The position numbers and the translations under genes are program-made. This document shows positions 48,637 to 63,796 of a stretch of DNA of 64,000 nt, one piece after another. The first letter of the stretch is position 1, and every line of letters begins with the position of its first letter. The notes under the pieces are model-generated. The model worked only from the letters and a program-made list of their open reading frames with translations, did not search any database and was not told the origin of the DNA. The DNA comes from Bacillota bacterium (GTDB lineage Bacteria > Bacillota > Clostridia > TANB77 > CAG-465), in assembly GCA_023460235.1 (NCBI GenBank), contig JAEWRE010000039.1, forward strand, positions 116,820-180,819. The letters run 5' to 3'.

Positions 48637-48713
48637 GGTTACATATGCACCTGTAGCTCAACTGGATAGAGTGCCGGACTACGAATCCGTAGGTTGGGGG
48701 TTCAAATCCCTTC
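48637..48713 (+). tRNA. tRNA-Arg (anticodon ACG)
   Basis: GCACCTGTAGCTCAACTGGATAGAGTGCCGGACTACGAATCCG...CAGGTGCACCA. Serves as attachment site for the downstream element. Confidence 0.85.
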
Positions 48714-48725
48714 AGGTGCACCAAA

Positions 48726-48952: not shown

Positions 48953-49169
48953 AAAAGTATATAATGAGTTTATATATACCTTATGTATATGTTTTAAATA
49001 GATAGTTTAGTTGTTTGAGCAAGGCTATCTATTTTCTTTTATAATTATCTTTAATTTATTAAAAAATAAGAATAATTATAAATTTATTGTACAACTCCAT
49101 TTGACTAAAATCAACTATTTTTTAAAATAATCGTTCGACATGATGGCAAATTTGACAACATGTCGAACG

Positions 49170-49493
49170 CTATTTGTATTCTGATAATTTAAAGATTATT
49201 AAGTCTATTATTCTGCTAATTTTCAAAGTTTTCGGATGAGTTAGACCATAACTTTCAATATGGTAATTAAGACTTTTTTTTAGTGAATTTATTTCTTCTA
49301 CAGTATAAAAAAAATCTTTTATATTTACATCTAAAAATTTAGATATAGTATAAAGTGAATATATACTAGTATTTTCAATTTTATTATTTTCTAAATCTGA
49401 TAAATGTGAAATTGATATACCTGTACCTTTATGTATTTGATCTAGCGTATATCCTTTTTCTTCCCTAATAATTTTCATTGTTATTACTATCAT
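49170..49493 (-). CDS. SinR-like XRE HTH regulator
   Basis: 107 aa. HTH KGYTLDQIHKGTGISISHLSDLENNK, similar in size and layout to SinR (HTH plus a short helical tail). Confidence 0.45.
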   Translation of the reverse strand: MIVITMKIIREEKGYTLDQIHKGTGISISHLSDLENNKIENTSIYSLYTISKFLDVNIKDFFYTVEEINSLKKSLNYHIESYGLTHPKTLKISRIIDLIIFKLSEYK

Positions 49494-49595: not shown

Positions 49596-50264
49596 TTATA
49601 TTTTAGTTAGTCCACCAGACCAAACATAATTTCCTTTTGCACTTTTGTACCATTTATTATTACCATTAACATTTTCACCTTCTACAATAGCTACTGCTTT
49701 AAATATATCACCTTTTTGAAGTAATCCTGTACCAGCTATCCCAGATTTAGAAGTTGCTTGGCTTCTTACATTAGCCTCTGATTTATCTACTCTTATATTA
49801 AAACTCTTTTCTTGTGTTTGCTCTGAATATGGCAGTATTTCCATTTGATGTTTGAAATATGGATTAGGATCTACTGGTATATTGTTTTCTCTTACTTCAA
49901 AGTGTAAATGTGCTCCAGTTACAAATCCAGTTGCTCCCATGTATCCAATTACTTGTCCATCTTCTACAATATCTCCAATATTAACACACACAGTACCTGG
50001 TTTCATATGAGCATATACTGTACTTATATTGCCACCATGTTGAATATGTACAAAATTCCCATAGCTTCCTGCTTTATATCCTGGTACGTTCTTTTCAGCA
50101 TTTATTACTTTACCTTTTTTACAAGCAATTATTTCGTCTAATTGGTAACCTTGTTTCACAAAGTCTATTCCAGAATGTTTATATGGTATACCATTTAACT
50201 TTTGATTTCCATATTGCAATGTTATTATTTCTTGTTCACTTTTTAATACATTCATGTTAAACAC
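49596..50264 (-). CDS. M23 (lysostaphin-like) peptidase with C-terminal SH3b cell-wall-binding domain: putative lysin
   Basis: 222 aa. M23 motifs HSGIDF...HxH (GAHLHFEV). SH3b-like C-terminus (KWYKSAKGNYVWSGGL). Confidence 0.7.
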   Translation of the reverse strand: MFNMNVLKSEQEIITLQYGNQKLNGIPYKHSGIDFVKQGYQLDEIIACKKGKVINAEKNVPGYKAGSYGNFVHIQHGGNISTVYAHMKPGTVCVNIGDIVEDGQVIGYMGATGFVTGAHLHFEVRENNIPVDPNPYFKHQMEILPYSEQTQEKSFNIRVDKSEANVRSQATSKSGIAGTGLLQKGDIFKAVAIVEGENVNGNNKWYKSAKGNYVWSGGLTKI

Positions 50265-50290
50265 CTCTATTTTTTTATATATTTTGTTGT

Positions 50291-51991
50291 TTAATTTTTT
50301 ATATCTACAATTTGCATTTCTGCATATCTTACTTGACCTGCGCCACCATCTTGTTGAAGTGAATGTATTATTGATTTAAACACTGTCCACGTTCCAGGTA
50401 TAGTATTCCATGCAACTTTATTAGTAGAAATCCTCATCATTCTGGCATTATTAGTTGCACCCCATATTCTCTCAAAATTGAATGAAATATTTTTGTATGA
50501 ACCATATTGATCAAATAATCCAACAACAGTGGCAGCATTATCAATTTGACAATTATCAGTATAGATTAACATCATTTGTGCATATCTACTATATCCTTCA
50601 GGTAATGGAATTCTTGAATCAATATCACTTTTAAAATTATAAAATATATTTCCTAAGTCTTTCCAACTTCCCTTATCTATATTTACAGGTGTATCTCCAG
50701 CTATACCAAATATGGGAAAACTTGCAACAATCTTATTTTTTGTAATACTATATAATTCTCTTCCTTTTCTAGCAGATAATGCATCTGTTGTACTATTACT
50801 ATCAAAGCTATCTACAACTATGGATTCAAGAGGTACGCTATTTTTAGCTTTAATAATTGAATATTCAACGAAATAAGGTTGTAAATTATTATGAGCCTGA
50901 CCGCCACCACCAAGATTAAATTTTAAATTTTGTAATGAATTTTCTGAATTATAAATCGTTGCATCTTTGTATTTTCCAGTAACTGAATTTGAACTACTAA
51001 ACACACCTTGAGGAGCCCAGGTATTAGAACCATTAGTGGATCCATGAAAATCTATCTGACCAGTAACATTAGGTATTTGATTTAAAGTTAAAGTATGTGT
51101 TTTTGCACCACCTATTGTTCCTATCTTATTAAACTCTGTTTGAGAGCTATCATGTGATACTACAACCTTCCCTTTTTTATTTGGAAGATTAAATGTTGTT
51201 GAACCATCCCCTTCTCCATACATAATTCCTATAACATCAAATAAGTCTTTATATTCTGTTCTTGATACTGCTCTACCATCTTCAATAAGCCAATTACTAG
51301 GAGGATTAGCAGAAGGATAATATCCTTCAAATCCTATAGGAAGGGTATCTGAATTTATTGTGCCTTCACTATCAACTTTAATTCCATCTGGACCAAACAC
51401 AATAATATATTTTCCATCATCAATATTTGTATAATGATATTTTGGTATATTTACATTTACGCTTGTTGCTATTGCTAATTTTATATAGAATTTTTTACCT
51501 TTAGTAAAACCTTGTGCACCTAAATCGCCTTGAAGTAAACTTTCTATTGAAAATTCACTTTTTTGTTCTTTATATACTATTTTTGATAAGTCAATTTCGA
51601 ATGGGCCATATTCAGTTCCTTCAGTTTTACCATTTTGATTATATGGAGATTCACTAGACCAATATTTTATATATTTTACATCATACTTCTCTAAATATTT
51701 TAACTTACCAGTTGCTTTAAATTTAACTTTTTCATCAACATCATTTGACCTTGTAGCCTCAACACTAGTAAAGTATGGGGTATAAAAAATTTCAACATTC
51801 AAAGGCTTAATGCTACTAGAAGTATTTCCCCTACTATCTACAATGGTTACTTTAACATAATCTTTTCCATCTTTTAAACTTTTAATCAATTTATCATCAT
51901 TTAAATAAATTGTTTCTGTTAAATAGGAATATCCATTCGGAAATATTATACCTTCCATTATAACAACACCTCCTCTGTTTGCCCGTTCCAT
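50291..51991 (-). CDS. Tail fibre / receptor-binding protein with phage tail-collar domain
   Basis: 566 aa. GGGGQAHNNLQPYFVEYSIIKA collar signature. Gly-rich, beta-rich. Confidence 0.55.
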   Translation of the reverse strand: MERANRGGVVIMEGIIFPNGYSYLTETIYLNDDKLIKSLKDGKDYVKVTIVDSRGNTSSSIKPLNVEIFYTPYFTSVEATRSNDVDEKVKFKATGKLKYLEKYDVKYIKYWSSESPYNQNGKTEGTEYGPFEIDLSKIVYKEQKSEFSIESLLQGDLGAQGFTKGKKFYIKLAIATSVNVNIPKYHYTNIDDGKYIIVFGPDGIKVDSEGTINSDTLPIGFEGYYPSANPPSNWLIEDGRAVSRTEYKDLFDVIGIMYGEGDGSTTFNLPNKKGKVVVSHDSSQTEFNKIGTIGGAKTHTLTLNQIPNVTGQIDFHGSTNGSNTWAPQGVFSSSNSVTGKYKDATIYNSENSLQNLKFNLGGGGQAHNNLQPYFVEYSIIKAKNSVPLESIVVDSFDSNSTTDALSARKGRELYSITKNKIVASFPIFGIAGDTPVNIDKGSWKDLGNIFYNFKSDIDSRIPLPEGYSRYAQMMLIYTDNCQIDNAATVVGLFDQYGSYKNISFNFERIWGATNNARMMRISTNKVAWNTIPGTWTVFKSIIHSLQQDGGAGQVRYAEMQIVDIKN

Positions 51992-52875
51992 TCTATTATT
52001 GCCTTTTTTAAGGTAGCTCCATTTTTTGCTTTAAGACTATCATTCTTTATAGCAATATAAGCATTAGATAGGGTTCCATATAATTCAAATCCAGCAATTA
52101 TATTGTTTATTTCTTGATTTGAACTAGTCCCACCCTCAATATCAAATATTCCAAAAATAGGGATCTCTGGATTACTATTAACAACCTTACATTCACCATT
52201 TGCAGTAGTAGTTCCTAAATATGTATTGTCAATATAAGTATAGAGATTAATTCTTATATTGGCTATTTTACTATTTGGCAATAAATTATAAAAAGTATCT
52301 TTTATATCAGCTAAATTGAGAGTAAAATTCTTAGAATTTTTTTCAAACTTTTTTATATTTATCCATGTATTATTTACATACATATCTAAATCTAATTTAT
52401 AATTATAATTTTGATTGGTTATATCTGATATATTTATATTTAAGTTATTTCCAATATCAAAATTTATATTAGAACTTATATTACTTGATACATAACCAGT
52501 TGGGGTTGTTAATGTTCTATCGGCTCCAGTATCGTATGTTATACTCCCTCCATTTGTGCTTTTAAATATAACTCTACAACCATTTATTTGGTTACTTCCA
52601 TATCCTTTATTAAACCAATAATAATCAGAATCAGAAGGAAAGTAACTTGTACCACTCCCATTATTTGGTGTGTTTGCTTTTATTTGTCTACCATAATTAG
52701 TTCCTTCAGTATATACATCTGAAATTATATTATAACCAAAATAATATCCATTATCTATTGCCCACGTTAATTTCCATCGTATACCAAGTCTAGGACCATC
52801 TCTTGTTGTTTCATATTCAACAATATAATTTATATGTCCCCATTGATTTTCTTTGCCTTGTGCGAATACTTGCAT
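51958..52875 (-). CDS. Tail fibre/baseplate-associated protein
   Basis: 305 aa, Asn/Gly/Tyr-rich beta-type composition. Positioned between the Tal-like and fibre genes. Confidence 0.35.
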   Translation of the reverse strand: MQVFAQGKENQWGHINYIVEYETTRDGPRLGIRWKLTWAIDNGYYFGYNIISDVYTEGTNYGRQIKANTPNNGSGTSYFPSDSDYYWFNKGYGSNQINGCRVIFKSTNGGSITYDTGADRTLTTPTGYVSSNISSNINFDIGNNLNINISDITNQNYNYKLDLDMYVNNTWINIKKFEKNSKNFTLNLADIKDTFYNLLPNSKIANIRINLYTYIDNTYLGTTTANGECKVVNSNPEIPIFGIFDIEGGTSSNQEINNIIAGFELYGTLSNAYIAIKNDSLKAKNGATLKKAIIEWNGQTEEVLL

Positions 52876-52886
52876 AATTTTTCCTC

Positions 52887-54761
52887 CTAACTATCCTTAT
52901 CATAAGATATTCCTACTCTTCCATCCTGTAGCACTGTTATTCTCATTTTTCCTATATTTAAACGTTCAAAGAAGGTTGCTCTATCAAATGTTGAATTATC
53001 GCCATTAAATTCGGCTTTAACTTTATTTGTTTCTCTATTTTTTATTATTGTTCCTTCAGCACCAAAAATTGTCTTAGTATTTTTTATTGTACTTTCAACC
53101 TCAAATCCATTATGGCCAAAAGAATAATTGGTTCCTACTAATTCACCAGGATAACTTTGATAACCAAGTCGTCCCCCTTTATTAAACATACAATCACAAA
53201 ATAATGTATAATTATTATCACTTAAAATTTCAATCTCGACTTGTGACATAGTACTATTTACTGGAAATTCTACCTCTGTAAAAATACCTGGCTCGATTTC
53301 AATATTATATATTTTTTCTATACCTGTTGTTATTTTAACTTGTACATTTGTAAGCTCTAATTTATATATAATACAACTAAATGTATATTCTGTATTTTCC
53401 TTTATTTTTATAGGAGCAAACTTTACACTACCATTATTTATTTTTATTGCTGTTTTAGATATAGTATTTTCTAAGATTTCATTATTTTGTACAATACTCA
53501 CGTTGCCATTTTTTATATTACCATCATATCCTAAACGTAAAGTACTATCTTGTAGAAGGTTCAAACCACCAGCTTGCTGTAAATTTATATTCACATTATC
53601 AACATTTTGTGTTATTTTGCTTATTCTCGTGTTATTTTCTTCTACTAAACTTGCTACTGATTGTATAGTTTGATCTTGCTTATTTACTATAATTTCTGTC
53701 CTTTTAGCAATTTCTAGAGCTGTAACTGGGTTCTCATATTCAATACTAGCCTTTGTTATACTAGGTGCTTCAAATCCTATTTCAGTTCCTTCAATATTAA
53801 TTTTTAATATTATTGTTTTAATACTTTCTCCAGATTTATTTTTTACAGTTACAGCATCACCTACTTCAATGTAAGGATATAAACAATTTTTTAAAGTCAT
53901 TGAAGAGTAACCAAAACCTGTGGATTTATTATATATTTGGCTTATTAATTGTTCTCTTTTATTTTGTGTATAGGCAAAGGGATTATCTACAAGCATTAAG
54001 TAATTTTCTCCATAGTATTGAATTCCTTCTTCCCATCTCATAGTAACATTTTCACCTTCAATATTAGATGCTCCAAGTCCAACAACTGTAATAGGTTGAA
54101 TATCTCTATTATCTTCAAATTCTGAATATTCATTAGTTTCAATTACTATATCAGTCATATTTGCAAATATTAATTTTAATTTGTCATCTATTATTTTGGC
54201 AAAATTACAACTTATACCTGAAATAGCACTAATAACATTCCCAAATTGTGCTCCATCAAATTGATTGCTATCAACAATAAATCCTGAATTTTCAAATTCA
54301 GTAAAATCATATTCAACATCACACTTAATGCAACATTCTTCAAGCACATCTAGTATTGTTACGCTACCACTTGAATAATTTAATTCTGAGTTGTACGATT
54401 TTGCAAACTTTAAACCATAATCATAAGCAGTTACTTTAATACTTTCTTTTGTATCACTTTCCTTTATATCATAAACTATAAATGTTCCATATCCTATTGA
54501 TTCCCAAGTCCCATCTTCCAGCTTAAACTCCTTAAATGCCTTAAAATCTTTTTGTTTGAAATCAATATTACTATCTGAATAATCAAATTCAATTCTCTTC
54601 ATAATAAAATTTTGTATAAAATTTCCATCTTTGTAGCAATCATCATAAAGATTAAACCACAGATATATTCTATCTGTGGTTCCATTTAAGATAATATAAT
54701 CTCTTTCAATTATATTATCTTTTTTTAGTGTATTTTTTAAAGCAATAGAAACATTTTTCAT
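52887..54761 (-). CDS. Tail-associated (Tal-like) / prophage endopeptidase-tail family protein
   Basis: 624 aa, in the position and size class of siphovirus Tal. Start ATG overlaps the upstream stop (ATGA). Confidence 0.45.
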   Translation of the reverse strand: MKNVSIALKNTLKKDNIIERDYIILNGTTDRIYLWFNLYDDCYKDGNFIQNFIMKRIEFDYSDSNIDFKQKDFKAFKEFKLEDGTWESIGYGTFIVYDIKESDTKESIKVTAYDYGLKFAKSYNSELNYSSGSVTILDVLEECCIKCDVEYDFTEFENSGFIVDSNQFDGAQFGNVISAISGISCNFAKIIDDKLKLIFANMTDIVIETNEYSEFEDNRDIQPITVVGLGASNIEGENVTMRWEEGIQYYGENYLMLVDNPFAYTQNKREQLISQIYNKSTGFGYSSMTLKNCLYPYIEVGDAVTVKNKSGESIKTIILKINIEGTEIGFEAPSITKASIEYENPVTALEIAKRTEIIVNKQDQTIQSVASLVEENNTRISKITQNVDNVNINLQQAGGLNLLQDSTLRLGYDGNIKNGNVSIVQNNEILENTISKTAIKINNGSVKFAPIKIKENTEYTFSCIIYKLELTNVQVKITTGIEKIYNIEIEPGIFTEVEFPVNSTMSQVEIEILSDNNYTLFCDCMFNKGGRLGYQSYPGELVGTNYSFGHNGFEVESTIKNTKTIFGAEGTIIKNRETNKVKAEFNGDNSTFDRATFFERLNIGKMRITVLQDGRVGISYDKDS

Positions 54762-55135
54762 TACACTATCACCTCACTACTTTTTTCTAATATGACATCA
54801 AATTCAGAATATGATTCCCCATATTTACTATATATTAAATTTTTAGATCCTTTGGTTACTATAAAATTATATTTTTTATAACTTCTTGTATTTGGATTCC
54901 AAACTTCATATTCTCCATCTACAAATCTTTCATTATATTCTTTTATAGTTGAACCATCTAGTTGCCCTATATTTATTCCAATTGTTAAAGTATTATAAGA
55001 AGCATAAATGATTTTTATGCTCCCATCTGCCTTTATAGATTTATTTAAAACAACTGGTTGTTCATCAAATTCATATCCTTCACTCAATATATTACTAAAT
55101 TTATATGTTCCTTTTTTTATTAAATAATCTTCCAT
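54761..55135 (-). CDS. Small tail component (distal-tail position)
   Basis: 124 aa, immediately after the tape measure. Short for a canonical Dit. Confidence 0.3.
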   Translation of the reverse strand: MEDYLIKKGTYKFSNILSEGYEFDEQPVVLNKSIKADGSIKIIYASYNTLTIGINIGQLDGSTIKEYNERFVDGEYEVWNPNTRSYKKYNFIVTKGSKNLIYSKYGESYSEFDVILEKSSEVIV

Positions 55136-55144
55136 ATGTACCTC

Positions 55145-56368
55145 CTAGAAGCCATACTGTAATTCTAATTTTTTATTTACTCTATTTGTGTTTTTTGCAA
55201 CTTTTTCTCCATCTAGTTCTACGGTAGAGTTTATAATTATTTCTTTATTATCACTTATGGCTTGTAATGTTGCCTGTGTTTTATCTTCATTTTCCACTTG
55301 CATTGTTGCTGTAGACGTTAAATTAGCACTTAATTTTCCTGTTTCAATATCTATTGTTTTTTGCATATCAGCATAAACATATTTTATATTTTTTATAAAT
55401 CCCTCTCCAATGCCCAGAGCTATATACTTGCCTACTTCATCCCTAAATTCTTTTGATGGACTATGTATTCCTAATACGCTTTTCATTCCATCTAATATTC
55501 CTTTTGCAAAACTTGCAATTTTATCTTTTAACCATGCAGCAGCATTATTTATTCCATTCCACAAGCCTTCAACAATGTTTTTACCTATATTTAACATATT
55601 GGCCGGTAAATCATTAAAAAAATTAGATATGTTTTCTATTATTAATGGTATGTTTTCCATGATCATATTTTTCATATTAATAATCCATAATTCAATATTA
55701 TCTATAGTTTTTAATAACAAATTTAAAATATTTTCTGGTAATTCTCTAAACCAATTTATTACACTATTTATTATTTTTGGTAGTTCTGTTGTAATCCAAC
55801 TAGTTATATCTATTCCAAATTTAATAATATACCCTAAAACCACCCCTATTAGATACCCTACATTATATGGTAATTCTTTGAACCAGTTTATTGCCATAGA
55901 TATCCAACTAGGTATTGTTTCAATAAAAAAATTACCTATAGCATTGAATACTTCTGATATCACATCTTTAACATTGTTAAAGATGTCAATAATTGCATTT
56001 CTAAAATCTTCATTTGTTGTCCATAGATATATTATTGATGCAATTAATCCTGCAATCAAGCCTACAATTATAGGAATAGGATTTGACAACAACATTGCAA
56101 AGTTTAAATTAATCTGTGATGTCGTCATTACATCTAATGCATTGCTTACTATCTGTATAATTTCACTTACTTCTTTTGCTAAACCTAATGCTGCATCAAA
56201 TGAAGCTATTACCTCATTCATAGACATTGATGATTGTAAAGCCATAAACACCCCTGTTAACGGAATTATTACTTTCACTAAATTATTTAATTTATCTGTG
56301 GCTTCTTGTGCATCACTTGCAACAGAGACAATTGGATTTTTTATCGATTTATTTGATTCTTTTGCCAT
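55145..56368 (-). CDS. Tail tape measure protein (unusually short, 407 aa)
   Basis: Position after the chaperone pair, helical composition, internal hydrophobic segments (IPIIVGLIAGLIASIIYLW) typical of tape measure proteins. Confidence 0.5.
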   Translation of the reverse strand: MAKESNKSIKNPIVSVASDAQEATDKLNNLVKVIIPLTGVFMALQSSMSMNEVIASFDAALGLAKEVSEIIQIVSNALDVMTTSQINLNFAMLLSNPIPIIVGLIAGLIASIIYLWTTNEDFRNAIIDIFNNVKDVISEVFNAIGNFFIETIPSWISMAINWFKELPYNVGYLIGVVLGYIIKFGIDITSWITTELPKIINSVINWFRELPENILNLLLKTIDNIELWIINMKNMIMENIPLIIENISNFFNDLPANMLNIGKNIVEGLWNGINNAAAWLKDKIASFAKGILDGMKSVLGIHSPSKEFRDEVGKYIALGIGEGFIKNIKYVYADMQKTIDIETGKLSANLTSTATMQVENEDKTQATLQAISDNKEIIINSTVELDGEKVAKNTNRVNKKLELQYGF

Positions 56369-56387
56369 CTTTTCACCTCACTTTTAC

Positions 56388-56424
56388 AAAAAAGAATGCA
56401 TCCTTAGATGCATTCTTTTTTCTA
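56388..56424. terminator. Hairpin with flanking T-runs inside the tail gene string (AAGAATGCATC-CTTA-GATGCATTCTT)
   Basis: Perfect 11-bp stem between the chaperone and tape-measure genes. Possible attenuator. Confidence 0.4.
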
Positions 56425-56466
56425 ATTTTATTTTTTATTATTTGATTCTTTCTTATATATATTGTT

Positions 56467-57042
56467 TTACCAAAAAACACTACCAAAATCCCTTTCTTTT
56501 TCTTCTGTTGTGCGTACATCAGGCAACGCATATAATTTTCTTAGTTTTTTATAGTGATTCTTTGTTTCTTTATCTTTAATCTTAGATAAATCAATTGCTC
56601 TATAACCCATTATTTTTGATATTTGGGTATTTTCATTTAATCCATTAAACATAGCTTTGAATTCCCACCAGTGTAAGCATTTTACTTTGTTTAAATTTAT
56701 TTGATATTGTTCTAAAAAAGCATCAAAAATATAATCTGCATCAAATTGATAACTGTATATTTGATTTGATCTATTATCATTATTTTCAGAACTGACTAAT
56801 TCTTTCTTTTCATCTCTTCCACATCGATAAAACCAAAGCATGTCTTTTATAGCAATATTGATATCCTTAATTTTAGATAAATCATAATAGAGATTAAGAG
56901 CAAGTAGAATTTTATCTTTTTCAAATATTTTATTATCTTGCATAAGTAATTCAAATTTAATAGAAGTCCTAAAGTCTGTATCTATTTCAAGTCCATTTTG
57001 AGTTATTTGGGGTAATTTATCTAATAATATATTAGTTAGCAT
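56467..57042 (-). CDS. Tail assembly chaperone (gpT / Gp15-like position)
   Basis: 191 aa. Synteny only. Confidence 0.35.
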   Translation of the reverse strand: MLTNILLDKLPQITQNGLEIDTDFRTSIKFELLMQDNKIFEKDKILLALNLYYDLSKIKDINIAIKDMLWFYRCGRDEKKELVSSENNDNRSNQIYSYQFDADYIFDAFLEQYQINLNKVKCLHWWEFKAMFNGLNENTQISKIMGYRAIDLSKIKDKETKNHYKKLRKLYALPDVRTTEEKERDFGSVFW

Positions 57043-57045
57043 ATA

Positions 57046-57399
57046 CTACTTCCTTTTTTGTACTCTTCTTTGTTCTCTATTAGGTTGATATCTATTAAAA
57101 GTATTTTCAAATTCCTTTTGCTGTTCTAATTTCTCTTTAACAATATCCTCAAAAGCAGTTATACAATCTTGTAAATTATTTTTTTCACCAAAAATATTAA
57201 GTGATACTCCTTCACCGAAAACATTATCAAAGAATTCCTTTATTAGTATACATTCTAATTTTATAGTTTCAGATAATTTCATATCTTTTTTTTCATATTC
57301 TTCTGCCTTTTCTTTAACCTTTTGCACTTCAATTTCAAATTTTTCAACGCAATCAGCATCTAAAAAATCAAAATCAACTTCTACTTCTCTTATTTTCAT
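57046..57399 (-). CDS. Tail assembly chaperone (gpG-like position)
   Basis: 117 aa, acidic, directly after the major tail protein. Confidence 0.35.
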   Translation of the reverse strand: MKIREVEVDFDFLDADCVEKFEIEVQKVKEKAEEYEKKDMKLSETIKLECILIKEFFDNVFGEGVSLNIFGEKNNLQDCITAFEDIVKEKLEQQKEFENTFNRYQPNREQRRVQKRK

Positions 57400-57402
57400 C
57401 TA

Positions 57403-57891
57403 TTATTCCTCCTCTGCTGTAAATGTTGATGATTCCCAATTATCAGTTGTACTTGCTATACCTTCAATTATATCTCCTTGTGCTGCAAAAGTACCACTAT
57501 ATTGATAAGCATCAGTTCCATCGCCATCAGCTTCTGGAATTACTGAATATACTCTCTTTTTAGCTTTAAATGTTCCAGCTGTTGAACCAGCTTCATTAAA
57601 ATTAACTGTAACTATCTCAACAATCTTGCCAGTAATTTCTTTATCATGTACTTCTGCTATAAGATCTTGTACATCATTATCAATCATTCTGTCAAAGTTA
57701 TATGCAATTTCTGTTGCATATCCAGTAACATCTTTTCTTTGTGTTCTTTCCTCAACATATCTTCTTTCATATGTACTTGAATTTAAACTTTTTCCACTTT
57801 CAGTAAATCCAGTCATTCTTGAATAATTTTCTCCGTTAGCTGTAGCTTTCATAAAATTTACGATATCTGCTCTGTTATATAATTTTCCCAT
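57403..57891 (-). CDS. Major tail (tube) protein, TP901-1-like family
   Basis: 162 aa. Size and sequence character (TGYATEIAYNFD...GTFAAQGD) fit siphovirus major tail proteins. No sheath gene nearby. Confidence 0.55.
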   Translation of the reverse strand: MGKLYNRADIVNFMKATANGENYSRMTGFTESGKSLNSSTYERRYVEERTQRKDVTGYATEIAYNFDRMIDNDVQDLIAEVHDKEITGKIVEIVTVNFNEAGSTAGTFKAKKRVYSVIPEADGDGTDAYQYSGTFAAQGDIIEGIASTTDNWESSTFTAEEE

Positions 57892-57893
57892 TT

Positions 57894-58307
57894 TTAATTT
57901 CCTCCTTCAAAATAAACAACTTGCATTTTTACTATGTAGTTTGCAATCGTCTCATTTTTTTGCAAAATATATCCTGGTGTTGTACATTTTATACTTTCAA
58001 TTCCAGATATATTAAGCAAATTACTAGATTTGTTTTGTGTTTCAATCCATTTATTAAAATCTTCAAAAAATTTACTGTTAGTAAGATTTTGAAGATCAGT
58101 AAATGAGCCACTAACAGTAAAATCAAATGTCATTTGCTTTAAACTACTACCATCAGCATATTGTTTATAAACTAAATTAGATTGTGTTAAATCCATGCTG
58201 TAATTACTTATTTCATCACTAACATAATCAACAATTATTTTTCCATTTTCAAAACATGGACATGTTGCTATAATGTCTTTAACTAATTCTATCTTTGATT
58301 TAGACAT
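57894..58307 (-). CDS. Putative tail completion/terminator protein
   Basis: 137 aa. First gene of the tail string. Confidence 0.3.
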   Translation of the reverse strand: MSKSKIELVKDIIATCPCFENGKIIVDYVSDEISNYSMDLTQSNLVYKQYADGSSLKQMTFDFTVSGSFTDLQNLTNSKFFEDFNKWIETQNKSSNLLNISGIESIKCTTPGYILQKNETIANYIVKMQVVYFEGGN

Positions 58308-58882
58308 TTTAATATACTCCTCTACCTCTTTGCAAATTTTTCTCCTTATATATATAGAAAATTACAATTCAATTATAATATTGTATTTAAAAGTATTTAA
58401 CTTTTATTCAGATTATAATAAAAAATTAATGTTTATCTTTTTACTCTTTAACCAAGATAGTTTGTATTTGTTTTCTTATTTTTATATAATACTTTGAGTA
58501 TAAATCATATTAAAACTTTAACATTATAATATCTCTACGTATAGATATTATTTAATATAAATCTATATGTTTATATGATATATACTCTAATAAAAATAAG
58601 TTTCTAATATAAATATATTTCTATTTTTAGTATTAATTTTTTTATATACTTTGAATTGTTAGATTCTACATATTTTCAGATTTTAAATTTTGCATTGAAA
58701 CTTTTGATAATGATTTTAACTAATTTGATAATTTATCCTCCAGCTGAAAGGTTGTTAATTTATTAAATTAGTATCTCATCATCACTATTGTATAATCTAA
58801 ACTATTTATTAGTTAGATTATATGCTTCTTTAACGTCTAGCTCCAAAGACGAAATTACCTTAGATGCTATTAATTTTTTTAA

Positions 58883-59308
58883 TTATTTTACATCCAAATT
58901 TTTATCTTTTAATTGTGTAAGTATATCTTTTAATTTATTTGGATATGGAACTCCTAATTTTGTTGTATTTTCTAAAAGTGAGATTCCTTCGTTGGCAATA
59001 TAAAAGAATATTGATAGTTTCCTTAGCATATCAATGTTAAGTGCTTGATCTAGCATGTTGCATAAACCTATTAAACCAAAAATTAAGAATTTTTTAAATA
59101 TACCTTTATATCCAACCTCAGAATTTAAATTTTTATTTATAAATATTGCCACTGCAAGTCCAGTTATAAAGTCAGTAAATGTAAATGCAACTAAAACACT
59201 CATAGAAATATCCCATCCACCTAAATAATTTAATATCAATGTACCAAGTGTAGCAAATATTAAACAAATCCATTGCCCAATTTCACTTAAATTACTTAAT
59301 CTAAACAT
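58883..59308 (-). CDS. Holin, TcdE / phage_holin_4_1 family
   Basis: 141 aa, 3 TM. Block GGWDISM...FTDFITGLAVAI...GYKGIFKKFLIFGLIG...GVPYPNKLKDIL parallels C. difficile TcdE. Confidence 0.65.
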   Translation of the reverse strand: MFRLSNLSEIGQWICLIFATLGTLILNYLGGWDISMSVLVAFTFTDFITGLAVAIFINKNLNSEVGYKGIFKKFLIFGLIGLCNMLDQALNIDMLRKLSIFFYIANEGISLLENTTKLGVPYPNKLKDILTQLKDKNLDVK

Positions 59309-59524
59309 TTTTCACCTCCCTTTTTTCTAAATAAAAAAACATTGTACTTATACAACGTTTTTTATTAATAGAATTTATATTAAATCTATGACTTATTACA
59401 AGCTAATTAAATTAAAGTAAATTAATTTGTAAAATTTATCTAATGTTTATATCTATTGCTATTATACATTATAACATGGTTTTTATATAAATTTCTATTC
59501 TTTAAATCCCAGTTTTTTCCCAAT

Positions 59525-60157
59525 TTAATAATTTGTTCTGATAATACCTAATAATTTAGTTTTAATGTTAGATAGTTTATTCTGAAGCCTTTTTTGAGTC
59601 AGCTCCTTATTAAAATTTTTATTATATGAAATTTCAATATCAGACCAATCCATAATTTCATAATACTTACATTCTATCAAAAACATTTCTTTTGGACTTA
59701 ATATATTAAAAGCTATCTCTAGTTTACGTATCTCAATTTCAATTAAGGCTTTCTCACTTTTTGCTATTTTTATTAATTCTTCAGCTTGTTTTTGATTTAA
59801 TTCATTTCTTATTGCTTCGCTTTCAACAGGACTATATAATCTATTTTTTGCTCTAGGCATTCCAAATGTGGATTCTGGAGTATTAGTAAAAATATTTTCA
59901 TTTTCTTCAAGGGCTTTATTCCATGTATTTATTCTTTCAGATAATGTAGCAATTTTTGCTTTATTATTTATATAATTTTTTAGCATTCTATTTACATCTT
60001 TCATATCTAATAAGGCATCTGCACATGGTGTACTACTTTCTCTATTAAATTTTCTTGGTTCTTTACAAAATCTACAATAACTATAACTTTCACACATACC
60101 ACCATTACACTTTATAGCTCCTTTTTCTAGTTTATCTTGTATTTGTTCTTTATTCAT
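59525..60157 (-). CDS. Putative late-gene transcriptional activator: sigma-70 region-4-like C-terminal HTH with N-terminal Cys4 cluster
   Basis: 210 aa. C-terminus LSPKEMFLIECKYYEIMDWSDIEISYNKNFNKELTQKR resembles region 4 / ArpU-RinA-type activators. N-terminus CNGGMCESYSYCRFC. Confidence 0.4.
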   Translation of the reverse strand: MNKEQIQDKLEKGAIKCNGGMCESYSYCRFCKEPRKFNRESSTPCADALLDMKDVNRMLKNYINNKAKIATLSERINTWNKALEENENIFTNTPESTFGMPRAKNRLYSPVESEAIRNELNQKQAEELIKIAKSEKALIEIEIRKLEIAFNILSPKEMFLIECKYYEIMDWSDIEISYNKNFNKELTQKRLQNKLSNIKTKLLGIIRTNY

Positions 60158-60202
60158 ATACCCTCTTTCCTCCTTTTAAAATTATTATATCTTATTTTAA
60201 TA

Positions 60203-60385
60203 TTAATCTTTTTTACACTCATTGTGCTTTTCATATGTATAATTTAATACTCTAATAATCTCTTTAGCTAATGACTGATCTTTATTTTTATAAAATATCC
60301 TTTGGATTAAATTATGTATATCAGCATAATTACTTTGATGTATTTTTTCATTTCTAATATAATCTTCAATAGTGTAGTATTTCAT
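60203..60385 (-). CDS. Small protein (60 aa), first gene leftward of the divergent control region
   Basis: ORF only. Confidence 0.3.
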   Translation of the reverse strand: MKYYTIEDYIRNEKIHQSNYADIHNLIQRIFYKNKDQSLAKEIIRVLNYTYEKHNECKKD

Positions 60386-60448
60386 TTTCTATTTCCTCCC
60401 TCATATTACTAACTTTTCATATATTTATTTTAACTTAAGAAAACCTTT

Positions 60449-60618
60449 TGATCGTATAAATAGTTTTTAATTCATATCAATTTATTTTCTTGTTACGATA
60501 ATTATATACCACTTTAATTATCGTGTCAAGTATATTTTTAAATTTATTATCGTCTGCCGTTTATTATGTAATTTTTATTGACACGATAATATGAATATGA
60601 TATAATTATATTGACAAG
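60449..60618. promoter_or_regulatory. Divergent control region with repeated operator half-sites (ACGATAAT / ATTATCGT) and a sigma-A promoter for the repressor gene
   Basis: Near-palindrome CTTGTTACGATAATTA-N11-TAATTATCGTGTCAAG at 60489-60530. Further half-sites at ~60547 and 60586. -35 TTGACA (60579) and -10 TATAAT (60602). RBS AAGGAG before ATG 60649. Confidence 0.5.
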
Positions 60619-60648
60619 AAAATTTTTTAAAAAAATAAGGAGAAAATA

Positions 60649-61017
60649 ATGAATGAATCTGATAGAGAATTAATTGGTAAGAGACTAAAGTCAAGAAGAG
60701 AGTTAGCTGGATTAACTCAAGAACAAGTTGGTGAAAAAATAGGAAAAACCTTTGCTACTGTTGCAAAATATGAAAGTGGTGAAATAAAAAATATAGATAT
60801 AATGGTTATTAGCACAATTGCTGATATAACTGAAACTGACATTGACTATTTATTATTAAAAAATGATGATCCAAACCCTAAGAGCAATTATATAAAGTAT
60901 AAACATTTAAATAATTCTTTAATAGGTAGAGTTTCTAAAAAAATGGAAGGGATGTCAGATAACGAGCTGCAAATGCTTGATAAGATAATAGATGCTCTTA
61001 TGAATGAAAAGAAATAA
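60649..61017 (+). CDS. XRE-family HTH repressor (ImmR/CI-like)
   Basis: 122 aa with an N-terminal HTH (LTQEQVGEKIGKTFATVAKYESGE). Confidence 0.6.
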   Translation: MNESDRELIGKRLKSRRELAGLTQEQVGEKIGKTFATVAKYESGEIKNIDIMVISTIADITETDIDYLLLKNDDPNPKSNYIKYKHLNNSLIGRVSKKMEGMSDNELQMLDKIIDALMNEKK

Positions 61018-61026
61018 AATTGGAGA

Positions 61027-61449
61027 ATGTGTGTTATGAAAAAATTTTATGATTATATACAAAAGGAAAATATTATATATAAAGAAGATTATATTGATGA
61101 AAATATAAAGGGACTATGCATAAAACTACCGAACAGTAAGACTGCTATTATTCTTAACAATAGTCTAATAGAAAATAAAATTGAAAGAAACTGTATTCTT
61201 GCGGAAGAATTAGGACACTATTATTGTGATGCCCTTTATTCACCATTTTGTAAAGATCAAACGATAATAGATCGAAATGAATATAGAGCAAAGAAATGGG
61301 CATTTAAGTCTATCATAGGTAAAAAATTAAATCAAAATATAAAAAAGTATAAAAATATGCTTAAATATGAAGTTGCTGAAGAAATTGGTGTAACTGAAGA
61401 TATGCTTGATATGGCATATGATTATTATAAAAGAAATGAGGCGCTTTAA
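61027..61449 (+). CDS. ImmA/IrrE-like (DUF955) putative metallopeptidase with variant motif (EELGH instead of HExxH)
   Basis: 140 aa. ILAEELGHYYCD. Translationally coupled to the repressor gene. Confidence 0.4.
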   Translation: MCVMKKFYDYIQKENIIYKEDYIDENIKGLCIKLPNSKTAIILNNSLIENKIERNCILAEELGHYYCDALYSPFCKDQTIIDRNEYRAKKWAFKSIIGKKLNQNIKKYKNMLKYEVAEEIGVTEDMLDMAYDYYKRNEAL

Positions 61450-61479
61450 TAGTTGGTAGTTATAGGGAACATGGAAATT

Positions 61480-61927
61480 GATATGAATTAAAATATACTT
61501 ACAAAGAAAAAACAAATTATAAAACAATTAAATTAAGCAAAGCTATGAATATAGATACTGAATTACAAAGATTTGTAATTGCTATTGAAGATAAAGTATC
61601 ACCTACCTCATCTATTAACTTTACAGTTTATGCTCAAAATGGTTGGATGAATATGCTTATCCAAAATTATCTGCCAAAACAATATAAGGTTACAAGGAAC
61701 AATTAAACAATAAAATAATTCCTTATTTTGGAAGTATGCAATTGAAAGACATTACAACTTATAATATTCAACTTTTTTTAAATGATTTATCAAAGGAATT
61801 TATAGTCGAGAAAATAGTAAAAGGTGAGAAAATAACACAATTAACACAATTAACAGGATGCACAATAAAAAATACAAAGATTAATTTCAGTTATGCTCAA
61901 TTCAGCAGTAAAGTGGCAATTAATTGA
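61480..61927 (+). pseudogene. Tyrosine-integrase remnant (N-terminal AP2-like/core-binding fragments only, frameshifted, catalytic domain absent)
   Basis: Frame a: YELKYTYKEKTNYKTIKLSKAMNIDTELQRF...YLPKQYK. Frame b: IPYFGSMQLKDITTYNIQLFLNDLSKEF (classic integrase N-terminal signature). The ORF ends about 70 nt before the att repeat. Confidence 0.5.
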
Positions 61928-61998
61928 ATTTAATCCGTGTATATATGTATATTTCTTAAAGGTAAAGAAAGTACAATAAAGTCAGTTTTTTTAATAGA

Positions 61999-62046
61999 CT
62001 ACGAATCCCCGTAGGCTGGGGGTTCGAATCCCTTCAGGTGCACCAT
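61999..62046 (+). repeat. attR-like partial copy of the tRNA-Arg(ACG) 3' end
   Basis: GACTACGAATCCCCGTAGGCTGGGGGTTCGAATCCCTTCAGGTGCACCA versus the tRNA GACTACGAATCCGTAGGTTGGGGGTTCAAATCCCTTCAGGTGCACCA. No 5' half present. Confidence 0.75.
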
Positions 62047-62073
62047 TATAATTACTGTGATATCAAGCATTAT

Positions 62074-62547
62074 CTAAATATTTTGCTTGATATTTTTTTT
62101 ATCATAACTTGATTTTTTTACTGTAACAAGAATACTAAATAATAATGTTTGTATTAATATTTCTAGTAAACCTCCAATTTGTAAACTTAATGGTTCTTTA
62201 GAAGGATAAAGATATATAAATTCTTCAATTGAAAAAGAAGCTGTACCAGGTGTATTAAAAATTCCTAATATTATAAGAATCAACCATACTCTTAACCATC
62301 CATATTTATTATTGATATAACTATTTCTAATTAATACTAGAACTATTCCAAATAGAATACCTCTAATAATTTGAAAAAGTGGTGCCATTTTAACTATAAT
62401 ACTACTCATATCTCTTCGAGTTGAACTATCAATTAGGGAACTCTGATAATTAAATATTTGTGAAAAAACAATACCACAAACTACATATGTTATAACATGA
62501 ATTATAGTTACTTTAAATATAAATTTTATTTTCTCATTTTTTATCAT
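62074..62547 (-). CDS. Membrane protein (4 TM)
   Basis: 157 aa. Confidence 0.35.
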   Translation of the reverse strand: MIKNEKIKFIFKVTIIHVITYVVCGIVFSQIFNYQSSLIDSSTRRDMSSIIVKMAPLFQIIRGILFGIVLVLIRNSYINNKYGWLRVWLILIILGIFNTPGTASFSIEEFIYLYPSKEPLSLQIGGLLEILIQTLLFSILVTVKKSSYDKKNIKQNI

Positions 62548-62586
62548 TTTTCTTACTATTTTATATAGATATTTTGCAGATATATT

Positions 62587-63210
62587 TTATTTACTATTTT
62601 GCTTTTCTTTTCGACTTTGAATATACGTTACAAGTGAACATATAAATATATATATTATAAAAAATAGAATAAATTGCATATATGTATTGCTAGATAATAT
62701 TGGATATGGTGCCATAAAATGTGAAAATAATAAATTGTATATTATAGACAATGGTATAAACACAATAATCCATATATTGATTTTCCAAAATTTATTTTGA
62801 GATAACAATTTATCTTTGTTAGAAGCCTGATATTTTCCTATTGTAAAGATCATAGTTCCAATTATCATAAATATAAAGCCTGCTAAAATTGCATCATCTG
62901 CCCTTGTATTATTCCATATAAAAATTGATATTAATAATCCTAAAAAATTTAAAGAGGTCGCTACTGAATTAAAAATATATGTGTTTTCTGTACTATTATC
63001 TCTTTTGTTATTTTCTATTCCCCTTAGTAATAAATCCGTAGTAACATCAAAAAAGTCACTTAGTAGTATTATTTTATCAATATCAGGTATTGATTGTCCA
63101 CTCTCCCACTTTGAAACCGCTTGCCTTGATACCCCTATTTTATCTGCAAGTTCTTCTTGTGAAATTCCTTTAATTTTTCTAAATTCTAAAATCCTATCTG
63201 CTAATGTCAT
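62587..63210 (-). CDS. Membrane-bound XRE HTH regulator (N-terminal HTH plus C-terminal 4-TM domain)
   Basis: 207 aa. HTH ISQEELADKIGVSRQAVSKWESGQ. Confidence 0.5.
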   Translation of the reverse strand: MTLADRILEFRKIKGISQEELADKIGVSRQAVSKWESGQSIPDIDKIILLSDFFDVTTDLLLRGIENNKRDNSTENTYIFNSVATSLNFLGLLISIFIWNNTRADDAILAGFIFMIIGTMIFTIGKYQASNKDKLLSQNKFWKINIWIIVFIPLSIIYNLLFSHFMAPYPILSSNTYMQFILFFIIYIFICSLVTYIQSRKEKQNSK

Positions 63211-63448
63211 AATAAAAATCTCCTTTCTATTTTTATTATATCAATATCCTAGTTACACCTCAACCAAGTAGACCTTTAAATTTGTCAACTAACGGTTGCA
63301 TGATATCTTAATTATCTTTTTTTACAAAAATTATACTATAAAAAGAAATAATTTAATATATGAATTTTAGAATTATAATAAAATATTATTATTTTTCTTT
63401 ATAAATTTATGCATACTATTATTAATATAGTTAGCTTTTAATATCTGA

Positions 63449-63796
63449 TCATATAAAATTTTTAGTTTTTCTTTTCATTATTATTACATCATCCCTTATG
63501 TACTCAACAATATAACTAAAAATTTTATCCACTTCAAATTCTTCAATAAAAAATATTTCATCTTTTGTAAAAACATAATTATAATCATATATAACTTGAT
63601 TACACATATTTAATATTAGATTATACAACTTCTCTTTTATTATTGTTTCTAGTAAAACACTATATTTTCCATTTTGATTTTTCTTTATATGTTCAACAAA
63701 ATTATATTTATAATATATTTCATTTGACTTCTTTTTTATTTCATTATAATAATTATATTTTTTAAATATATTAAACAATTTCATACTCCACCTCAA
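63449..63796 (-). CDS. Hypothetical protein
   Basis: 115 aa. Confidence 0.3.
   Translation of the reverse strand: MRWSMKLFNIFKKYNYYNEIKKKSNEIYYKYNFVEHIKKNQNGKYSVLLETIIKEKLYNLILNMCNQVIYDYNYVFTKDEIFFIEEFEVDKIFSYIVEYIRDDVIIMKRKTKNFI

Follow-up and report, generated by a model that had tools for sequence, protein, structure and literature searches.

What does a small repressor gene followed by a gene for an ImmA/IrrE-like protease control when the operon that faces it encodes a phage tail and no head, and what should be made of such a protease when the first histidine of its HExxH motif is replaced by glutamate? This question is raised by a locus in a 64-kb stretch of AT-rich DNA (GC 26.4%), hereafter called the window, from an uncultured low-GC Bacillota bacterium; all coordinates are window positions and those of the features are collected in Table 1. 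We conclude that the locus is probably a control module of the lysogeny type, belonging to a tail-only prophage derivative of 13.3 kb integrated at tRNA-Arg. It would work as ImmR/ImmA does in ICEBs1, its nearest parallel being the CI-like/MpaR pair of the Listeria monocin, and the genes under its control are most likely those of the headless tail cluster. An ImmR/ImmA-type pair governing the leftward tail genes had been proposed in the initial annotation of this DNA, and the proposal found support in silico from the matches to phrog_87 and capH, from synteny and from the pattern of selection.

The repressor, the small protease and its EELGH motif

The gene on the left of the pair had been read as an XRE repressor of 122 amino acids (aa), and the HTH_3 match of Table 1 bears this out. 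The protein consists of an N-terminal helix-turn-helix (HTH) domain at about residues 9-70, a linker and a conserved C-terminal tail (residues 83-122) which includes the segment LIGRVS. Its HTH is of the Cro/C1 type, the phage repressor families phrog_8, phrog_4 and phrog_3 were also matched, and the capH model of PADLOC covers the protein over its full length (E = 8e-11). The model built with AlphaFold2 (AF2) from the single sequence reached a pLDDT of 43.6 and was unusable. In the search for repressor orthologues, a scan of viral contigs returned none, a scan of metagenomes returned only relatives of 26-38% identity, and an exact look-up of P0001 gave no match.

The repressor ends with a stop codon at 61015-61017 and the protease gene follows in the same direction after a gap of 9 to 18 nt, according to the start chosen; the two genes are probably co-transcribed. 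They do not overlap and the second has its own GGAG, so that the translational coupling assumed at first has to be given up. An open reading frame (ORF) for a protease of 140 aa, as first listed, is indeed present (61027-61449, from an upstream in-frame ATG at 61027), but the only Shine-Dalgarno sequence, the GGAG at 61022-61025, lies 1 nt before that ATG and 10 nt before the ATG at 61036, and all database copies of the protein have 137 aa. The real product is therefore most likely the 137-aa form, whose numbering is used below.

The assignment of this protein to the DUF955/ImmA-like proteins stands. It matches phrog_87 ("metallo-protease", E = 1.8e-15) and the capP model (E = 9e-4), and most of its homologues bear a precomputed PF06114 label. 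Sequence searches of the PDB gave no meaningful match, either with the 137-aa protein alone or with a profile of 35 sequences, so that a comparison of folds was needed. The AF2 model computed with 35 homologues (pLDDT 93.2, pTM 0.86) displays the zincin-like alpha/beta fold common to IrrE, CapP and PrpR, reduced to the protease domain and a short helical tail, without the C-terminal GAF domain of CapP and IrrE. Judged by the modelled structure, the protein is a member of the ImmA/IrrE family which lacks the literal HExxH, as does most of its own subfamily.

The motif in question, EELGH, occupies residues 57-61 (E57-E58-L-G-H61). The alignment of 35 homologues confirmed what the initial annotation had suspected, namely that the first His of HExxH is truly replaced by Glu. 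The literal combination of HExxH with a downstream Glu ligand (ExxAxxFA) is thus absent, while the catalytic Glu, the second His and the E82xxAxxW segment are kept and invariant: the invariant columns are A56, E57, E58, G60, H61, Y62, E82, A85 and W88, in homologues down to 27% identity. From general knowledge of IrrE, we take E82 of the ExxAxxF/W motif to be the third metal ligand.

How common the Glu variant is was examined by several searches. A word-index homology search, which selects on shared 5-mers, found EExxH in 120 of 120 matches and EELGH in 118; as the motif may itself be the shared 5-mer, this result was treated as biased and the question was re-tested with an index-free HMMER search of 1.84 billion cluster representatives. 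Among the top 149 clusters, about two thirds carry EExxH and about one third HExxH, the two being interspersed by rank. The tblastn matches among annotated phages, index-free as regards the motif, point the same way, with EEVGH in gp26 of Listeria phage PSA and EELGH in phiCT9441A_04 of Clostridium tetani phage phiCT9441A. One Listeria prophage ImmA-like homologue aligns its EEVGH with EELGH at 32% identity over 88 aa (E = 5e-11), and the Listeria prophage homologues read EEVGH or EEIGH. The proteins found by a search started from PSA gp26 were all PSA-like ones of Listeria that read EE[VI]GH, EELMH being absent from them; a 19-kb record from Listeria (L007), considered as a monocin, was rejected since it is a PSA-like prophage.

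The sequence EELMH is that reported for MpaR, the DUF955 protease which acts as anti-repressor of the monocin: its H54A mutant no longer cleaves the CI-like repressors, and mitomycin C raises its cleavage activity (PMC6872733). The form found here, a small (about 130-155 aa), single-domain protein with EExxH, is that of the MpaR-type anti-repressor proteases. Because EExxH is shared by about two thirds of the 149 nearest clusters it is a trait of the subfamily and not a lesion, and with an active MpaR in addition it is unlikely to signify an inactive enzyme. Inactivity, one of three explanations first offered for EELGH, has thereby become the least likely of them. By analogy, the Glu variant would be a normal, selected form compatible with activity, which has been demonstrated in at least one case, that of MpaR. 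Since the missing first His is the majority state in this clade of small proteases, annotation should not score such proteins as inactive, and the prevalence of the His-to-Glu form in the clade deserves wider notice.

Both genes of the pair can be compared with three close relatives: L003, a Bacillota metagenome-assembled genome (MAG) whose repressor is 85% identical; L011, a Logan contig with a protease 84% identical; and L012, which is almost the same as the window (98.9% nucleotide identity in the DNA that both cover). For repressor and protease alike, dN/dS is 0.05-0.10 at a dS of 0.8-1.5, near saturation (0.07-0.10 for the repressor against two orthologues). On these substitution rates, both genes are under strong purifying selection. 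L011 and L012 come from one Logan sample, ERR13731209, and the L011 switch has about 80% nucleotide identity; the presence of two versions of the switch in one sample indicates that related strains with different alleles of the element co-occur.

Divergent promoters and the island around them

The intergenic region upstream of the repressor (60386-60648, 263 bp, 20% GC) contains two sigma-70 promoters that agree with the consensus at every position. The initial annotation had correctly described the rightward one, P(R), and had overlooked the leftward one, P(L), which is embedded in the inverted repeat and aims at the 60-aa ORF, the 210-aa ORF and the lysis and tail genes. The window has five perfect promoters of this kind, where chance would give 0.13. 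P(L) and P(R) diverge, with 49 bp from one -35 to the other, and both are invariant in the three orthologous loci. The inverted repeat that had been reported there is real, with arms CTTGTTACGATAATTA (60489-60504) and TAATTATCGTGTCAAG (60515-60530) complementary at 14 of 16 positions, but the spacer counts 10 nt and not 11; it holds O1, O2 and the whole of P(L).

Four half-sites had been announced, and four exact copies of ACGATAAT/ATTATCGT are indeed found (O1 to O4). The 8-mer is the most repeated one of the 263-bp region, and none of 5000 shuffles gave a CG-containing 8-mer at four copies; over the whole window, both strands included, it occurs 7 times against 1.75 expected from shuffles, and four of the seven are gathered here in a stretch of 96 bp. 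In the core of P(L) two sites occupy about -31 to -24 and -9 to -2, their centres being 22 bp apart and hence on one face of the helix, and P(R) has one site at -31 to -24 and another at about -65. The geometry of O4 at P(R) is that of O2 at P(L), and the -35 regions of the two promoters consist of one and the same 13-mer, TTGACACGATAAT. A longer inverted repeat of 46 nt, 78% complementary, covers both promoters (60484-60529 against 60578-60623), the pattern that an inverted duplication of a single promoter-operator unit would leave; where P(L) has O1, the corresponding letters of P(R) are ATTATATT and not ATTATCGT, so that a start-site operator was lost there or was never present.

Conservation of the promoter/operator block follows the same landmarks. 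The block is 83% identical between the loci; no change is seen in the four promoter hexamers or in the ACGATA cores of O1, O2 and O4, whereas the intervening sequence has diverged. O1 and O4 are invariant in L003 and L011, as is the TATCGTGTCAAG core of O2. Further copies are found 150-170 bp to the left of the promoters, a single ACGATAAT in L003 and a palindrome in L011. The latter (L011 positions 645-672, about 150 bp left of the promoters) is a perfect 27-nt palindrome, ATCAATTATCGTTTTACGATAATTGAT, made of two ACGATAAT half-sites tail to tail with a 3-nt gap; its sequence resembles a classical dimeric HTH operator and hints at the true geometry of the half-sites.

Another comparison was provided by L001, a metagenomic temperate sister phage whose protease is 66% identical to that of the window. 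The two repressors share 60% identity in the tail (83-122) and 39% in the HTH, and the switch region of L001 (8899-9063) has no ACGATAAT but three copies of a different palindrome, AACCGTTNCGGTT. The operator motif thus tracks the HTH and the tail tracks the protease, the pattern that would result from an HTH that reads the DNA and a tail that serves the protease as substrate. In L001, moreover, a further gene of 167 aa separates repressor and protease, and the place of the tyrosine integrase is taken by a large serine recombinase.

The protease gene stands immediately downstream of the HTH repressor and co-directional with it, close to an integrase and an att site, which is the position of an ImmR/ImmA-type module. 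Here the order is repressor, protease, integrase pseudogene, attR, and since the last two follow the protease the module forms the right end of the 13.3-kb tRNA-Arg island. All five homologue contexts (L001, L013, L015, PSA and phiCT9441A) show a cro-like gene running leftward and, divergently, XRE repressor, EExxH protease, none to two further genes and integrase. According to Argov et al. 2019 (PMC6872733), the usual place of the protease gene is directly behind that of the main repressor, and the order is the same in ICEBs1; placing the repressor first, at first considered a possible sign of a different partner, is therefore the normal arrangement.

The integrase remnant gave a Pfam match only as a stitched translation of three frames (Phage_int_SAM_3, E = 4.5e-16, 59.3 bits), while tblastn with four integrases gave no significant match to it; the catalytic domain is absent. 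From this reconstruction, the remnant is a tyrosine-integrase pseudogene. The attR sequence differs from the 3' half of the tRNA gene by a few substitutions and a 2-nt indel, and the copies lie 13.3 kb apart; read from the repeat, the tail-only island is as a whole the product of an old integration, with the two tRNA-Arg copies at its ends. L003 lacks window positions 61450-63468, and with them the integrase remnant, attR and two neighbouring genes, and blastn of 59400-62100 against 50,697 phage records gave no match. Just beyond attR (62074-63210, minus strand), a gene for a 207-aa XRE protein (62587-63210) stands beside one for a hydrophobic protein of 157 aa; the former combines an XRE HTH at its N-terminus with a hydrophobic C-terminal half that apparently crosses the membrane several times, both genes are missing from the orthologous locus L003, and the two may form a membrane-anchored regulator pair.

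The genes that P(L) faces are those of a tail and of a lysis system. After the 60-aa ORF, which has homologous DNA in L003, L011 and L012, and the 210-aa ORF, the leftward order is holin (Phage_holin_4_1, E = 3.5e-35), tail completion protein, tube-like protein, two chaperone-like ORFs, tape measure, tail proteins, fibre and an M23-type lysin. No capsid, terminase, portal, packaging, replication or sheath gene was found in the 13.3-kb island with Pfam, PHROG and the ORF map, and there is no room left for them. The gene content, a siphovirus-type tail with holin and lysin, is thus that of an F-type tailocin, and as read from its genes the island would have an F-type-tailocin-like layout paralleling the monocin. 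All tail and lysis ORFs are intact, and the set is syntenic in L003 at about 80% nucleotide identity. The tape measure has 407 aa here (55145-56368) and 544 aa in L003 (3227-4861), with unalignable DNA between conserved ends, so that the two elements would make tails of different length.

The 210-aa protein is 81-91% conserved in the orthologues. It matched nothing in Pfam, NCBIfam, the PDB or phage tblastn, and a precomputed PF05263 label on three of its homologues was not reproduced; from its phrog_36 match it may tentatively be regarded as a late transcription regulator or activator. Behind its gene comes a gap of 216 bp with a hairpin and T-run, AAAAAACGTTGTATAAGTACAATGTTTTTTT, at about 59335-59365 on the minus strand. 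A simple terminator scan did not call this hairpin, which may be a terminator or an attenuator separating early from late transcription. A second gap, between holin and first tail gene (58308-58882), is an AT-rich stretch of 575 bp with no credible ORF; it shows no conservation in L003, where a separate gap of about 550 bp takes its place, and Rfam at the gathering threshold found nothing in it. A late promoter or an RNA might lie there. At the far end of the operon, the 107-aa XRE protein could have a role in immunity or be a second regulator, and its gene is followed by a long perfect hairpin, CGTTCGACATG...CATGTCGAACG (49136-49170).

Table 1. Features of the tail-only island and of its control region (window positions)
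Feature	Position	Strand	Description
tRNA-Arg(ACG) gene, integration site, attL	48647..48723	+	ARAGORN; Rfam tRNA 64.6 bits
Second XRE gene	49170..49493	-	107 aa; far end of tail/lysis operon, after lysin
Lysis and non-contractile tail cluster	49596..59308	-	Pfam, PHROG tail families, ORF map
210-aa ORF	59525..60157	-	second gene downstream of P(L); phrog_36 "transcriptional regulator", E = 2.1e-6
60-aa ORF	60203..60385	-	first gene downstream of P(L); no family match
Inverted repeat CTTGTTACGATAATTA-N10-TAATTATCGTGTCAAG	60489..60530		holds O1, O2 and all of P(L)
O1 (ACGATAAT), candidate site	60495..60502	+	overlaps last 2 nt of P(L) -10 hexamer and predicted start site
P(L), leftward promoter	60501..60529	-	TTGACA-17-TATAAT, 12/12 consensus
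O2 (ACGATAAT), candidate site	60517..60524	-	abuts P(L) -35 hexamer, 1-nt overlap
O3 (ACGATAAT), candidate site	60546..60553	-	about -61 to -68 from predicted P(R) start
P(R), repressor-protease promoter	60578..60606	+	TTGACA-17-TATAAT, 12/12 consensus, TG extension
O4 (ACGATAAT), candidate site	60583..60590	+	abuts P(R) -35 hexamer, 1-nt overlap
XRE/CI-like repressor gene	60649..61017	+	122 aa; HTH_3 E = 1.8e-12, residues 13-68
ImmA/IrrE-fold (Peptidase_M78/COG2856) small protease gene	61036..61449	+	137 aa; EELGH and E82xxAxxW88
Integrase pseudogene	61494..61960	+	N-terminal SAM-like domain only; frameshifts, in-frame stop
attR, imperfect direct repeat of tRNA-Arg(ACG) 3' half	61997..62045	+	exact 12-mers common with 48677-48723

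Proposed working of the switch and competing explanations

Together, these elements suggest the following mechanism. The HTH of the repressor would bind the ACGATAAT sites, shutting P(L) and autoregulating P(R); the shut-off of P(L) would be tight since two sites cover both of its promoter elements. From P(R) would be transcribed the repressor, the protease and the now-dead integrase. The EExxH metalloprotease would be made constitutively together with the repressor and would stay latent until a stress signal, most likely DNA damage by analogy with ImmA, MpaR and CapP. Once activated, it would cut the repressor between the HTH and the conserved tail, the candidate region being about residues 86-96 (HLNNSLIGRVS); in a multiple alignment, the junction between LIG and RVS stands opposite the mapped Listeria cut site between IAA and HID, which can serve as a pointer only. 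The repressor would then leave the DNA, P(L) would fire and the tail and lysis genes would be expressed, possibly through the 210-aa protein as late activator. Binding to ACGATAAT, cleavage and the stress trigger, DNA-damage induction included, we infer from ImmR/ImmA, MpaR and CapH/CapP.

Several observations weigh against this mechanism or leave it less complete than its models. The half-sites do not form a classical palindrome of 14-19 bp, given the 22 bp from O1 to O2, and O3 has one mismatch in L003 and is absent from L011, which makes it the least secure of the four. The site in P(R) is placed as in P(L), so that the repressor should also repress itself. The path from P(L) to the tail genes crosses the two long intergenic gaps and the hairpin at about 59335-59365, and P(L) may reach these genes by read-through or through a cascade in which the 210-aa protein is the activator. 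On the side of the protease, Pfam PF06114 (Peptidase_M78) scored 16.4 bits, under the gathering cutoff of 22, for profile positions 17-119 of 123; NCBIfam gave no match, and no solved structure with an EExxH site was found in the PDB searches. The tail of the repressor shows no significant similarity to that of the Listeria repressor. Finally, no LexA/Cheo box (GAACN4GTTC, at most one mismatch) was found at 48.7-62 kb, and the total for the window is below chance. Direct LexA control was rejected on this ground, and any damage signal must act post-translationally, through the protease; with neither a LexA box in the island nor a GAF domain in the protein, the nature of that signal is argued by analogy.

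The same elements can also be joined in another way, in which EExxH marks a mechanistically distinct branch of the ImmA/IrrE family and the promoters are looped by the repressor. The Glu in place of the first His would then shift the metal preference (e.g., towards a harder ion, Mn2+ or Fe2+) or turn the loading of the metal into the point of regulation, the switch sensing the metal or redox state instead of, or besides, DNA damage; the isolated 8-bp sites, spaced by 22, 29 and 37 bp, could let the repressor bridge both promoters in a higher-order complex without classical palindromes. We consider this combination unlikely. It is improbable, too, that the island is a decaying remnant, silent or otherwise regulated, with a relic for a switch, or with a protease that has lost its catalytic activity because the His-to-Glu change disabled metal binding, leaving at most a non-proteolytic partner. 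The integrase pseudogene, the absent canonical HExxH, the Pfam score under threshold and the empty search for an EExxH structure could all be read in this sense; against them, the dN/dS of both genes is low at a near-saturated dS, the EExxH...E pattern is invariant in distant homologues and is the majority state of the subfamily, MpaR with its EELMH works in vivo and needs the His of its motif, and the intact, syntenic tail and lysis ORFs contrast with head and replication genes that are cleanly absent. Because an intact cassette of tail, lysis and switch genes was kept across the divergence after mobility had been lost, we read the island as a probable domesticated F-type tailocin: purifying selection maintained across lineages at a dS of about 1 after the loss of the integrase fits such an element and not prophage debris.

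Two further explanations were considered. TA-like modules were predicted for XRE-COG2856 pairs (Makarova 2009), homologues carry the label "toxin" in several phage records, the monocin pair was itself first predicted as a toxin-antitoxin (TA) system (noted by Argov 2019) and the PADLOC models capH and capP were matched; the pair could accordingly be imagined as an autonomous toxin-antitoxin or defence-type stress module which lies beside the tail cluster and regulates only itself. This is very improbable, since the pair is placed exactly where a lysogeny module has its repressor and protease, ahead of integrase and att, the core of the divergent promoter that faces the lysis and tail genes carries the operator motif, neither a CBASS nor another defence effector adjoins, and the homologous monocin pair proved in experiments to be a repressor and its anti-repressor. 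A CapH/CapP system was for its part ruled out, there being no defence operon and no GAF domain. Least probable of all is that the repeated 13-mers are the by-product of an inverted duplication of one strong promoter and not operators, the regulator being elsewhere, e.g., the 107-aa or the 207-aa XRE protein. The 46-nt inverted repeat does span both promoters entirely, TTGACA belongs to the shared 13-mer and these two further XRE genes are near. Yet O1 and O3 carry the exact ACGATAAT though they are not -35 elements, extra copies stand 150-170 bp from the promoters in L003 and L011, one of them as a perfect 27-nt palindrome, only the ACGATA cores are invariant between the hexamers while the spacers diverge, and where the HTH of the repressor differs the motif is gone and another is in its place.

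Comparison with known repressor/protease systems

The control module of the island combines traits that are distributed among several described elements. ICEBs1 of Bacillus subtilis provides the regulatory plan: there int, immR and immA are transcribed from PimmR, counter to Pxis, and one promoter divergent from the repressed one is likewise found here; multiple ImmR sites span both promoters, six of them against our four candidate sites; ImmR has 127 aa against 122, and is cut in its C-terminal part, between F95 and M96. ICEBs1 differs in being a conjugative element with a RapI input, and the integrase is dead in our island. ImmA carries the canonical HExxH. CapH/CapP of CBASS and DdrO/IrrE(PprI) of Deinococcus also rely on an HTH repressor that is cleaved near its C-terminal dimerisation region after DNA damage, CapP being activated by single-stranded DNA and cutting CapH between F82 and R83. 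Unlike the 137-aa protein, CapP and IrrE have a C-terminal GAF domain as well as HExxH, and they control defence or repair genes and not tail genes.

Among phages, Listeria PSA presents the series rep, gp26, gp25, int and attP in a tRNA-Arg gene, that is the same gene order and the same tRNA-Arg integration. PSA and phiCT9441A are complete temperate phages with head, packaging and replication genes, whereas only tail, lysis and regulatory genes are found here. The closest parallel is the F-type tailocin of Listeria monocytogenes, the monocin (PMC6872733), in which a small DUF955/ImmA-like protease likewise directly follows a CI-like repressor, and this pair likewise governs a tail-only, non-contractile tailocin locus. 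EELMH in MpaR and EELGH here both have Glu for the first His, a likeness taken from the published description of the motif, and the monocin repressor, as the one described here, consists of an HTH and a short conserved C-terminal tail, in which the Listeria protein is cut. The two differ in their host lineage, ours being an uncultured low-GC Bacillota whose nearest locus is a MAG, and our island, unlike the monocin, still shows att sites and an integrase pseudogene.

A monocin-like, non-contractile, tail-only locus is also known from a Bacillota of clostridial type, Clostridium (Hathewaya) histolyticum NCTC 503, whose F-type tailocin particles were observed by electron microscopy and mass spectrometry in a paper that does not describe their regulation (bioRxiv 10.64898/2026.06.17.733002). 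Beside these elements, the island stands as a clearly delimited second lineage of monocin-like tail-only elements of Gram-positive bacteria, with a control region that is legible almost base by base: two perfect promoters, four sites, a repressor, a protease, a dead integrase and both att sites. Its logic is the textbook one of ImmR/ImmA and MpaR, and it is a new example, in uncultured low-GC Bacillota, of that known system.

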